Assembly (NCBI GenBank): GCA_964016885.1
Contig: OZ024740.1
Span: forward strand, 159,650,001 to 159,714,000
DNA from: Eledone cirrhosa
Taxonomy: Eukaryota
DNA length: 64,000 nt
Reading direction: 5' to 3'
A program made the position numbers and the translations under genes. Positions within the stretch are counted from its first letter, which is position 1, and every line of letters begins with the position of its first letter. The notes under the pieces are model-generated. The model did no database searches, was not told the DNA's origin, and saw only the letters and a list, made by a program, of their open reading frames with translations. Positions 4,334 through 61,816 of this stretch are shown here, piece by piece.

Positions 4334-4769
4334 AATGTAATCTGAGTTTTTCGAATGTTAATAATAACATTCGATTCGTTTGCAATTATGCAAACAAGCC
4401 TCATTTTTAAAACCATGTCAATAGAATGAACCCTTCATTCTTGCTCTTTTGTTGTCATGTAAACAGAACTGCAGACACTGTTTGTGGGTATCACCCTTCA
4501 TCAGTACAGCACACTGTTCACCTGCCAACTGTCAGAGCTAGTGAAAAATATATGCTATTTTCTGAACAGTGAGCTGTGGTGAACAGTGAGCTGTACTGAT
4601 GAAGGGTGATACCCAGAAACATTAGTGTCAGCAGTTCTGTTTACATGCCAACACAAGAGCAAGAATGAAGGGTTCATTCTAATGACATGGCTTTAAAAAT
4701 GAGGCTTGTTTGCATAATTGCAAACGAATTGAATGTTGTTATTGATATTAAAATAACTCAGATTACATT
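4334..4769. repeat. Fold-back element with ~190-bp inverted arms (4334-4522 and 4578-4769), each containing a hammerhead motif
   Basis: Arms are reverse complements with scattered mismatches; flanked by (TA)n. Confidence 0.9.
4588..4637 (+). ncRNA. Minimal type I hammerhead ribozyme motif (inverted, core-mutated copy at 4466-4510)
   Basis: GAGCTGTA-CTGATGA-A GGGT GAT ACCC A-GAAAC-ATTAGT-GTC-AGCAGTTC. Core boxes intact; stems I-III pair apart from terminal mismatches. Confidence 0.7.
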
Positions 4770-5139
4770 TATTGTATTCAGCCATGTAGAGCAAATATTA
4801 AAAAAATATATATATAAAGATATACATATATAAATATATATATATATATATATATATATATATATATATATATATATATATATATATACAAATATATATG
4901 TATATGTGTATATATATATATGTGTATATCTACATATATGTGTGTGTGTGTGTATATATATATATAAATGGAATAAATGAAACAAAATTTCATTTCTCAC
5001 TCTTAGTACGGCTGTTACTTAAATATATGTATACGTACATGTACGTATACATACTTATATATATATATATATATATTTATGTGTGTGTATATGGAAAAAT
5101 GAAATTTCATTTCTCACTCTTAGTACGGCTGATACTTAA

Positions 5140-5583
5140 ATATAAGTATGTATACGTACATACATATATGTATACAGATGTACAGTAGTATGTATATACA
5201 TACATACATGCACACATATATATATGTATGTATGGGTTTACCAAACATTTATTATAATGCTCGGTTTGTTTGTAAACAAACAGCCCGAATTATTAGCTTT
5301 CAAACGTTCAATCGACTGACAGGAAGGTATACGGTGCTGATGACAGCTAATAAGCTAGAAACTAGTTCATCGTTCCTTTGTCAGTGTTGAACAAAAGGGC
5401 AACGATGGTTGCCAAACACTGTACGGCTAATAATTTGGGCTGTTTGTTTACAAACAAACCGAGCATTATAATAAATGTTCGGTAAATCCATACGTACATA
5501 TATATATGTGTGCAGGTATGTATGTATATACATACTACTGTACATCTGTATACATATATGTATGTACGTATTCATACTTATAT
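5140..5583. repeat. Fold-back element with ~155-bp inverted arms (5140-5297 and 5426-5583)
   Basis: Arms are reverse complements; the + ORF at 5148 and the - ORF at 5381 give nearly the same peptide. Confidence 0.9.
5331..5373 (+). ncRNA. Minimal type I hammerhead ribozyme motif
   Basis: ACGGTG-CTGATGA-C AGCT AATA AGCT A-GAAAC-TA-GTT-CATCGT. Palindromic helix III (AACTAGTT); stem I extends via AAGG/CCTT, ACTGACA/TGTCAGT and TTCAA/TTGAA over 5307-5391. Confidence 0.85.
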
Positions 5584-6175
5584 GTGTATATGTATATCTT
5601 TATATATCTGTTTGTCTTTATGTGCTATAACCTTGTGATTCGATAAAAACAGATGAAAAAAATAAGTACCAAACTTTAAAAAGAGTCCTGGAGTCAATAT
5701 GATCTGGTTTCAGCCATTAGAATGTGGCCTGATGGGGCATCACCTTGATTTAGTCGATCATATCAACAACGCTATTTACTTTTTCAAGTCTTTTATTTTA
5801 TTGATCTCTTTTTTGTTGAACTGCTGATGTTACGGGACATTAACACAGGTAGAGCAAAAATTGGAAACTTGAAGCTATAATAAAAGATACTCTTTTCTAA
5901 TGAGCTGCACAATGGTACTAAACCCAGAATCATGTGGTTGTGAAGTTGACGACTTAACCACACAGCCATGCCTGAACCTACATAAATGAATAAATGGAAA
6001 TAAATAGTTTAAATAAATTAAAACATATTAAAAAATACATGAGATAAGTAAAATAAATTATTTGATTTATTTGCCACAAGGGAACCAGATGAATGGGATG
6101 TTACAAAGACAGGTAAGCAGACTGGTTATAAAGACCGGAGGATATATATCAAATAAATAAAATATAGAAATGAAA

Positions 6176-6400
6176 TTAACCCATTAGCATTTAAAACAGC
6201 CATATCTGGTTAGAATTCTCTCACCTCTTTCTGTTCAAACTGACTGTAACTGACCACTCATACAACGTTAAGGTATTGTTCTCAAAATAAATATTAAAAT
6301 CTCATAGATTTTATATTATGTGAGATATTTATGTGAGCTAAAGCCTTTACCATGAAAATACAATAGTATACATAGAGTAATGCAAATGCTAAAGGGTTAA
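6176..6400. mobile_element. piggyBac-type MITE
   Basis: TTAA-CCCATTAGCATTT...AAATGCTAAAGGG-TTAA; the same family recurs several times. Confidence 0.8.
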
Positions 6401-6684
6401 ATAAAGTATGTAAATATAAATATGAATAAATAAAATCATTAGATAGATAAATAAAAAAATAAAATAAACAAATAAAATTATTTGATCAATAAATATATGA
6501 AATAAATATATAACAATTTTTTTTTAAATAGCATATAATAGATACAATTATTTGATAGATAAATAGATATATATAATAAATAAATAAAATAAAATATATT
6601 GAAATAAATTAAAATGATAAATAAATATACAAAAAATCTATAAAATGAATATATGAAATTCACATCATTATTATTGTTGAACAG

Positions 6685-6869
6685 GGCGGTGGATTGGCAG
6701 TATCGGTAGAGGGTCGGACGCCATGCTTTCCAGCATAGTTACGTCCCTTTATGGTCTGAGTTCAAATCCCGCCGAGGTTGACTTTGCCTTTCATCCTTAC
6801 GGGGTCGATAAAATAAAGTACCAGTAATGTACTGGGTTATTGCTGGCCTTGTGCCTAAAGTAGAAACAT
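6685..6869 (+). mobile_element. tRNA-derived SINE with Nin-like domain and 17-bp TSD
   Basis: Box B GAGTTCAAATC; GACTTTGCCTTTCATCCTTACGGGGTCGATAAAATAAAGTACCAG; TSD TTATTATTGTTGAACAG at 6668-6684 and 6870-6886. Confidence 0.85.
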
Positions 6870-6939
6870 TTATTATTGTTGAACAGCCATTTCCCCTGCT
6901 AGTAAGTGATAACCAAATTATCACAAAACAAATCAATAT

Positions 6940-7151
6940 TTAACCCTTTTGCATTTAAACCAGCCATATCTGGCCAGAAGTCTCTCCTCTCTTTCTGTCC
7001 AAACCAGCAGTAACTGGCCACTCATACTTATGTTAAGGTATTGTTCTAATAATAAATAACATCAAAATCATAGCTTTGATGTTATGTGAGATGATTTAAG
7101 GAGCTCACTTCACATAACATAGTATATGTAATGTAAATGCTAAAGGTTTAA
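6940..7151. mobile_element. piggyBac-type MITE
   Basis: TTAACCCTTTTGCATTT...AAATGCTAAAGGTTTAA; homologous to 6176-6400. Confidence 0.8.
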
Positions 7152-59760: not shown

Positions 59761-59971
59761 ATATGTATATATATATATATATATATATATATATGTGTAT
59801 ATATATATATGTATATATATATATATATATATATGTATATATATATAAATAATAGTGTCCGAATAGTCCTCACATTCAAGGACTGAACAAAGGAGAGGCA
59901 CAAAAACAAAGACAAGAATCCCCAGTCACTGAAGAGGTCACAGAAAGAACTTTGACAATATATAAACAACC

Positions 59972-60190
59972 ATCTGAAAACGTGTGTTGAAACCGATATT
60001 GTTATAATTTGGGAGGGTCATGTTGCCAATAAGAAACACACGCACCAGTTGCTTTCACTTCACTTTATTATAATAAATTTATAAATTCCTAAATTTATAA
60101 ATTTATTATAATAAATTGAAGTGTGTTTCTTATTGGCAACATGACCCTCCCAAAGTATAACAATATCGGTTTCAACACACGTTTTCAGAT
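59972..60190. repeat. Near-perfect ~220-bp fold-back
   Basis: 59972-60041 is the reverse complement of 60121-60190; an inner AT-rich palindrome spans 60059-60120. Confidence 0.9.
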
Positions 60191-60357
60191 AAAGAATCTT
60201 GCTAAACAAATCCAGAAACGAAATATATATATATGTATCTGTATATATATATATATATATATGTATACATATATATGTATATATGTATATATATATATCT
60301 GTATATATATGTATATATATATATGTATATATATATATGTGTATTTTACATCATACA

Positions 60358-60680
60358 TCATTTTTACGTCCACTTTTCCCTGCTTGCAAGAGTGGGACAT
60401 GACTGATTCTGGCTTGATTTCTACAGCTGGATGCCCTTCCTAACACCAACCTCATTTACAGTGAGTACCGGGTGCTTTTTTTCCATGGCACCTCCACGAC
60501 ACCTTTGCAGTGGAGTGATATGGACCCCAGTCCCTATCATCTCATTTCTACAGCTGTGTAAACTGGAGCAATGTGAAATAAAGTGTCTTGCTCAAGGAAA
60601 CAACACATCACCCTGTCTGAGAATTGAACTCACAACCTTTCGATTGCAAGGCCAATGCTCTAACCACTAAGCCATGTGCC
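60358..60680 (-). mobile_element. tRNA/Meta-like SINE with RTE-derived tail
   Basis: Reverse complement of 53170-53483. Confidence 0.88.
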
Positions 60681-60699
60681 TACATATATATATATGAAT

Positions 60700-61698
60700 T
60701 TGTATATATATATATATATATATATATGTATGTATGTGTATATATATGTATGTATGTGTATATATATATATGTATGTGTATATATATATGTATGTGTATA
60801 TATATATATATATGTATGTGTATATATATATGTATGTGTATATATATATATGTATGTGTATATATATATGTATGTGTATATATATATATATATGTGTATA
60901 TGTATGTGTATATATATATATAAATATATATATATATGTGTGTGTATATATATATATATATGTGTGTGTGTGTGTGTATATATATATATATGTGTGTGTG
61001 TGTATATATATGTGTGTGTGTGTATATATATATATGTGTGTGTGTGTGTATATATATATATGTGTGTGTGTGTGTCTATATATATATATGTGTGTGTGTA
61101 TATATATATATGTGTGTGTGTGTGTATATATATGTGTGTGTGTGTGTATATATATATGTGTGTGTGTGTGTATATATATATATGTGTGTGTGTGTCTATA
61201 TATATATATGTGTGTGTGTATATATATATATGTGTGTGTGTGTGTATATATATATGTGTGTGTGTGTGTGTGTGTATATATATATGTATTTGTGCGTGTA
61301 TATATATATATATATATGTGTGTGTATATATATATATATATATGTGTGTGTGTGTGTATATATATATATATATATATATATATATATATATATATGTGTA
61401 TGTGTGTGTGTATATATATGTGTGTGTGTGTGTGTGTGTATATATATATATATGTGTGTGTTTGTGTGTATATATCTATATATGTGTGTGTCTGTGTGTG
61501 TGTGTATATATATATATATGTGTGTGTGTGTGTATATATATATATATATGTGTGTGTCTGTGTATATATATATATATGTGTGTGTGTGTGTATATATATA
61601 TATATGTGTGTGTGTGTGTGTGTATATATATATATATATGTGTGTGTGTCTGTGTATATATATATATATGTGTGTGTGTGTATATATATATATATATA
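60700..61698. repeat. Compound (TA)n(TG)m microsatellite, ~1 kb (similar arrays at 14940-15315, 40340-40770, 42236-42744, 53484-53893)
   Basis: Directly visible; source of the many Y/I/C/V/H/T-rich spurious ORFs. Confidence 0.97.
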
Positions 61699-61780
61699 AG
61701 GCAAACAGAAATAACAACACAATCGGTACAGTATATGGAAGGGATATATTAGGTAAACGCTTGATATAGCAGGAAAAGGG

Positions 61781-61816
61781 TCTTAACGTTGCGGACACTA
61801 GTCCTTCATCAGAAGA
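61781..61816 (-). ncRNA. Penelope-type minimal hammerhead motif with one core mutation (GAAA to GCAA)
   Basis: TCTT-CTGATGA-A GGAC TAGT GTCC-GCAAC-GTT-AAGA; more decayed relatives near 12305-12340 and 13428-13470. Confidence 0.7.

Follow-up and report, generated by a model that had tools for sequence, protein, structure and literature searches.

Hammerhead ribozyme motifs in an Eledone cirrhosa genomic window probably mark insertions of Penelope-like elements and of ORF-less repeat units

The window analysed here is a 64,000 nt stretch of the Eledone cirrhosa genome (assembly GCA_964016885.1, contig OZ024740.1, positions 159,650,001 to 159,714,000 of the forward strand), located on C1 of the 3.0-Gb genome; positions below are counted from its first letter. 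Its hammerhead ribozyme motifs very probably mark insertions of at least eight hammerhead repeat families, of which D, E and H would be truncated 3' ends of Penelope-like elements (PLEs), and A, B and C head-to-tail units without an open reading frame (ORF), likely copied in trans by the same PLE enzymes. The presence of hammerheads in the window is confirmed; the elements belong to kinds already described; their load is unusually high and their footprint is informative as to mechanism.

Hammerhead motifs in the window

A strict structure-aware scan, in which a UH site had to accompany the two cores and stems I and II, found four type I motifs (4596 and 5337 on the plus strand, 37497 and 44818 on the minus strand); over 200 dinucleotide shuffles of the window the mean was 0.025-0.09 and the highest count 2. 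The five motifs named by the initial annotation are present, with CTGANGA cores starting at 4596(+), 5337(+), 37497(-), 52212(+) and 61812(-), and decayed relatives are found at 4504(-), 12337(-), 30449 and 59929; the strict match at 44818(-) is absent from its list. Two motifs were missed by the strict scan, namely 52212, with a long stem II and a mutated stem III, and the intact motif at 4136, with a weak stem II.

Homology to the family cores gave 11 hammerhead-bearing pieces belonging to eight families (A-H). Six cores are complete (4136, 4596, 5337, 37497, 44818 and 52212), with CUGANGA and GAAA, a UH site and stems I and II as in type I. The other five (4504, 12337, 30449, 59929 and 61812) are mutated or decayed and depart from type I; at 61812 GAAA is changed to GCAA. 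Among the complete cores, the base of stem I is mismatched in 4596, stem III is broken in 52212, the D copy of the window, and 5337 has a U in the cleavage position. A U at this position makes a hammerhead a poor substrate. The window motifs look minimal rather than canonical. When single motifs were folded, the active fold was mostly not the minimum-energy structure, and folding was not used as support. No hammerhead family was among the 150 listed of the 236 Rfam matches to the window.

The insertions carrying these motifs are as follows (no strand is given where none was assigned).

4004..4190, plus strand: family G stub with an intact predicted type I hammerhead at 4136; stem I is GCTTC/GAAGC, against GATTC/GAATC in other copies.
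4334..4796: family A insertion, ORF-less unit of ~438 nt; right arm (+) with hammerhead 4596 and a long, tailed 3' end, inverted left arm with the dead core 4504 and a short end.
4964..5583: family B insertion, ORF-less unit of 429 nt with hammerhead 5337 (+); inverted 5' arm long-ended, direct arm short-ended.
12232..12337, minus strand: decayed relative of family E, 74.5% match to 61703-61808.
30395..30520 (ends approximate): decayed family G hairpin insertion with a mutated core.
37356..37769, minus strand: family C copy with hammerhead 37497, one unit of ~340 nt plus terminal redundancy; the usual 3' end is absent.
44706..45097, minus strand: family F stub with the long-stem-II hammerhead 44818, probably the 3' pseudo-long terminal repeat (pseudo-LTR) of a Hydra-type PLE.
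52190..52450, plus strand: family D stub with hammerhead 52212 (branched stem II, mutated stem III), assigned by motifs as the 3' pseudo-LTR of a Hydra-clade PLE.
59880..60220, plus strand: family H stub with hammerhead 59929 lacking GAAA and with an internal inversion, assigned as the 3' end of a Neptune-type PLE.
61698..62429, minus strand: family E stub with the mutated core 61812, assigned as a Neptune-type PLE 3' pseudo-LTR; another repeat splits it at 61991-62378.

The motifs had been described as mutually unrelated, and this is borne out by blastn between the eight family pieces, which found a single shared 12-nt AT-rich word and nothing more. They had also been placed mostly near (TA)n tracts. 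For seven of nine motifs a (TA)5 run was found no more than 300 nt downstream, against 29% of random positions; for families B and C the same test found no such run within 800 nt. The location of several motifs within inverted repeats is correct for A and B.

Families linked to Penelope-like elements

On sequence grounds, D, E and H represent the 3' pseudo-LTRs of Hydra- and Neptune-type PLEs, left as stubs by 5' truncation. On the same strand, 13 of 24 E loci, including two identical ones, and 3 of 24 D loci have a PLE protein upstream. Starting instead from PLE proteins, with ORFs comprising a reverse transcriptase (RT) together with a GIY-YIG domain at the C-terminus, the family was found downstream at 9 of 11 loci for E, 20 of 24 for H and 9 of 19 for D. 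At one locus (L232) D flanks a 660-aa frame on both sides, and the long end of the upstream D continues straight into the ATG.

The absence of PLE RT and GIY-YIG ORFs from the window was rightly noted: tblastn with PLE proteins gave zero matches in it, and its sole intact RT belongs to a putative RTE-type long interspersed nuclear element (LINE). Stop-free PLE frames of 822, 823, 828, 861, 881 and 921 aa, not all complete at both ends, exist elsewhere in the genome, and the window therefore lacks a PLE ORF through 5' truncation only. Both of the origins that had been offered, pseudo-LTR derivatives and retrozyme-like RNAs, occur, the former as D, E, H and probably F and the latter as A, B and C; the flanks correspond to full-length Penelope pseudo-LTRs for about half of the families and not for A, B and C.

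The D-linked frames (L231 and L232) contain DKT, a CxCX5C linker, and CxxC and CxH replacing CCHH, and by the motifs given in PMC8557442 the D parent is assigned to the Hydra clade. The E- and H-linked frames have a CX4CxxC linker ahead of the C-terminal GIY-YIG, and by this linker motif their parents are typed as Neptune, with Nematis also compatible. Database relatives of the E-linked frame carry PF00078 (RVT_1), PF26215 and PF01541 (GIY-YIG). Pfam gave only a weak RVT_1 in two of four long frames and no GIY-YIG in the short fragments. Family F is probably the 3' pseudo-LTR of a Hydra-type PLE, as a Hydra-like GIY-YIG frame lies ~990 nt upstream with no (TA)n between at one of 19 loci (L194). 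Family G has 3,111 first-look candidates.

One locus (L233) was considered as an E element bracketed by pseudo-LTRs; this was rejected since the upstream E is followed by (TA)n, so that the 3' link alone counts. In three further loci (L228-L230) stop-free Neptune-type frames of 822-828 aa had no downstream hammerhead in the strict scan. In the upstream flank of L004 a repeat joins the 3' half of a D hammerhead to an E-type 3' end, which suggests recombination between PLE families.

ORF-less units and the insertion footprint

The units of A (~438 nt), B (429 nt) and C (326-342 nt) are ORF-less, with a GC content of 37-40% and circular-fold z-scores of -5.3 to -7.4 (60 shuffles). In each family the 3' end continues back into the family's own hammerhead. 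As low-GC units placed head to tail, with one predicted type I hammerhead each, they would belong to the non-LTR retrozyme type. Family B occurs as monomers, dimers, a trimer and a long array, and 16 B arms run on into B's own 5' part. Family C shows terminal redundancy and one dimer (L107), and its 342 nt head-to-tail joint is also found in contigs of sequencing run X1, a run that otherwise gave repeat coverage only. The 3' end of A leads into its own 5' part at three loci (L024, L025 and L032), and no full dimer was seen.

The B array comprises ~250 units over ~110 kb (C28:109,956,734 to ~110,067,750; L312-L321, L274 and L327) with mostly intact cores. At its start an inverted arm adjoins (TA)n, and at its end the units give way to (TA)n. 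The array is a likely source of multimer transcripts. An origin from a single rolling-circle event was rejected because there are unit pairs that are identical, common variants that are linked and a periodicity in blocks; the array is not star-like and has expanded by later duplication. Tandem B units have a mean identity of 0.946 within a locus and 0.905 between loci.

The three ORF-less families might be no different in kind from D, E and H, all eight families being plain pseudo-LTR debris of autonomous PLEs and the A, B and C units arising as partial tandems or by internal deletion and not as RNAs that propagate on their own. This is improbable. In its favour, such debris was demonstrated for D, E and H, it is normal for PLEs to occur as partial tandems and in inverted copies (PMC8557442), few loci were sampled per family, and A stands behind a PLE frame in L018. 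It is countered by the B arms that enter B's own 5' part and by the B dimers, trimer and 110-kb array. A PLE protein was found upstream at none of 24 B loci, at one of 24 C loci (distant, 28% identical) and at two of 34 A loci, one distant and the other the chimera in L018. When 110 GIY-YIG 3' ends were followed to the first microsatellite, none led into B or C and one, the same chimera, into A, in what is a blunt test; the D and E untranslated regions (UTRs) hold (CA)n. In L018 (500-1300) an H-type PLE 3' UTR switches to A at the position of the H hammerhead, possibly by template switching between two RNAs. Family A as a Neptune pseudo-LTR was rejected, L018 being chimeric and A lying downstream in none of 24 related ORF loci.

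The insertions of each family have one or two fixed 3' ends at a TA-rich microsatellite; the 5' end is truncated to varying extents and often bears an inverted arm. In the ORF-less families the 3' ends fall in two modes. Inverted pairs of families A, B, C, D and G were scored for one long and one short arm. The tail was present on one arm only in 16 of 18 pairs of A, 16 of 19 of B and 7 of 9 of C (pooled 39 of 46, p ~1e-6 against 0.5), and in all pairs of D (10/10) and G (15/15); the window copies of A and B obey the same rule. Thus 5' truncation, an inverted 5' copy, a tail at one end and a (TA)n target, all features of PLE-type insertion, were found for A, B, C, D and G. PLE insertions often show an inverted 5' copy with a tail at one end only (PMC8557442), and the PLE tail spans the interval between two internal sites at which the RT starts (PMC11167929). 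This footprint on ORF-less units points to mobilisation by a PLE RT in trans. In both A and B the short 3' end is immediately preceded by two small hairpins (window 4740-4770 and 5435-5490), which are a candidate common RT signal despite the lack of blastn similarity.

In the proposed mechanism, the GIY-YIG endonuclease would nick (TA)n and the RT would initiate internally on the RNA, at either of two positions downstream of the ribozyme, giving the tail. An early RT stop or a strand switch would then produce the stubs and hairpins. The genomic copies hold a whole hammerhead and end 100-300 nt beyond it, so that the template would have been uncut or re-ligated. For A, B and C it would exceed one unit, either as a circle formed by dimer self-cleavage and ligation or as a linear multimer.

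Two other means of movement bear on the same insertions. The window copies of A and B are near-perfect inverted repeats flanked by TA and could be taken for miniature inverted-repeat transposable elements of DNA transposon type, with the hammerheads there by chance or as passengers. The probability of this is negligible: arm lengths differ in a fixed way, inversion points vary, many copies have a single arm and equal terminal inverted repeats are not found on every copy. It is further contradicted by the ORF linkage, by compensatory stem changes and by cores 6.4-fold above control genome-wide. It is also very unlikely, if less so, that the ORF-less units were moved by abundant RTE or other LINE machinery, or spread by satellite recombination, with the PLE-like ends incidental. 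The window does hold an intact frame of this kind, a LINE at 54198-57317 (-) with an unbroken 1040-aa frame encoding an apurinic/apyrimidinic endonuclease, an RT and a PHD-like finger, for which the name RTE-type is a reading of the domain order; in the C28 array, duplicated blocks and linked variants are as expected of an expanding satellite. Dispersed copies are, however, without poly(A) and have two discrete 3' ends and one-sided tails, and the array itself opens with an inverted arm beside (TA)n and closes in (TA)n.

Several points weigh against copying of A, B and C in trans by PLE enzymes and against the PLE assignments. The tail test for C taken alone is not significant (p = 0.09), 6 of the 24 A rows, off-mode or duplicate, were left out of its count, and for D the pairs had been picked for having one long arm. 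Tandem B units are usually, but not always, mutual closest relatives, one unit of the trimer in L042 being only 91% alike, and because of these exceptions a circular template is no more than a candidate. For A, B and C no autonomous partner came to light, nor any 3' sequence common with D, E, F, G and H; out of thousands of loci only 24-34 per family were examined, and an uncommon parent with an ORF may lie outside this sample. The PLE clades were assigned by motifs and not by a tree, and the PLE link of F is based on one locus and that of G on none.

Genome-wide load, activity and relation to known systems

The strict scan of 78 arbitrarily placed 10-kb regions (779,800 nt) gave 73 motifs in 31 regions, falling into 16 sequence clusters, against 0-2 in ten shuffles, and the frequency of hammerheads is thus far above shuffled background. 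One tandem array supplied 15 of the 73; with that region excluded the estimate is ~226,000 genome-wide (bootstrap 144,000-331,000). Outside the B array, 40 of 58 sample hits have a short self-complementary stem III. The pattern CTGANGA-N12-18-GAAA occurs 255,473 times in the genome and the reversed pattern 39,653 times (6.4-fold), an excess of 215,820 cores or one per 13.9 kb, which gives 4.6 expected per 64 kb. The window as a hammerhead hotspot was therefore rejected, the whole genome being equally dense. One exact B core alone has 25,666 genome-wide matches, against 0 for its control. In many sampled regions (L160, L161, L164, L248, L253, L254, L259, L277 and L279) mirror-image motif pairs lie kilobases apart, suggesting frequent long inverted insertions or duplications.

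The largest published count found is 126,247 hammerheads in the axolotl (PMC7229834), a load ~16-fold sparser than that of this genome, with the reservation that the descriptors differ and the pattern used here is looser. The chances are about even that the present load of self-cleaving-ribozyme motifs (cores exceeding 200,000 in number, at one per 14 kb and from 16 or more families) is the largest and densest yet reported in an animal and that the PLE tail-and-inversion footprint of the ORF-less retrozymes is direct genomic evidence for reverse transcription of retrozyme RNAs by PLE proteins from internal starts on longer-than-unit, possibly circular, templates. In the literature on octopus and cephalopod hammerheads searched, which did not extend to subscription papers, supplements, Repbase and Dfam, only 235 Rfam hits in giant squid were found (PMC6962438); as no window motif was among the listed Rfam matches here, the load suggests that standard Rfam annotation greatly undercounts such motifs. 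The accessible part of an Octopus vulgaris repeat annotation (PMC13282606) has no mention of ribozymes.

The cutting of nascent transcripts or release of circular RNA from the window copies, as had been envisaged, is unsupported, 5 of 11 cores being mutated or decayed and no copy having a same-strand partner. Single minimal hammerheads showed no cleavage in vitro and are reported to need such a partner (PMC4209133), and a PLE hammerhead cut only with its protein present (PMC11167929). The two cores of A point opposite ways within a long hairpin. The single copies of the window are most likely inert and, as such, ordinary fossils. As regards host exons, none of the 150 frames searched, out of 151 in unmasked window sequence, had a Pfam match.

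Other repeats in the window are a broken relative of the RTE-type LINE (26195-29152), an array holding 4.2 tandem copies of a unit of 482 bp at 99% identity, which adjoins the intact LINE and in which no hammerhead core was found (57589-59615), and a tandem repeat of 2.3 copies of a 173-bp unit (8208-8599).

PLEs have been named as candidate movers of animal retrozymes (PMC7229834), and the mechanism of retrozyme mobility "remains to be elucidated" (bioRxiv 10.64898/2026.07.22.740005). Three ORF-less families with two mapped 3' ends, and stop-free PLE frames in one genome, are ready substrates for the published in vitro PLE assay. Both classes, PLE stubs and non-LTR retrozymes, are already known. 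The core density and the retrozyme tail footprint were not found in print, and the supplements of PMC8557442 and PMC4209133, Repbase and Dfam may hold related families. No report of tails in retrozymes was found in the literature outside subscription papers and supplements; the word "tail" has 0 occurrences in bioRxiv 10.64898/2026.07.22.740005.

The motifs resemble the minimal type I hammerheads of PLEs (Cervera and de la Pena 2014, PMC4209133) in their short or palindromic stem III, in the many heterogeneous families per genome, in the predominance of single truncated copies and in opposite-strand pairs 100-700 bp apart. They differ in that the base of stem II is mismatched or extended in several families, and in number, with thousands per genome and ~9,000 in Xenopus tropicalis there against ~216,000 excess cores here, by a looser pattern. 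With the Hydra and Neptune endonuclease-positive (EN+) PLEs (Craig et al. 2021, PMC8557442) the D-linked frames share the Hydra motifs, the E- and H-linked frames the linker noted above, and the insertions a (TA)n target, an inverted 5' copy and a one-sided tail; the tails here are longer (~95 nt in D and ~70 nt in G, against 30-40 bp).

Like the animal non-LTR retrozymes (Cervera and de la Pena 2020, PMC7229834; Li et al. 2026, bioRxiv 10.64898/2026.07.22.740005), A, B and C lack ORFs, are low in GC and consist of tandem units a few hundred bp long, each with a single type I hammerhead; they range from monomers to long arrays, with PLEs in the same genome. Expression as circles is documented for the published retrozymes only. 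The PLE link of the former consists of co-occurrence and pseudo-LTR homology; in A, B and C it is the tail and inversion footprint, with no detected homology to the sampled PLEs. The non-autonomous elements of Chlamys, e.g. MRC1 (PMC8557442), are mostly without hammerheads and have 3' ends common with autonomous families, whereas A, B and C have hammerheads and no such common 3' ends were detected; the likeness lies in non-coding dependence on PLEs, pseudo-LTRs and multicopy head-to-tail insertions.

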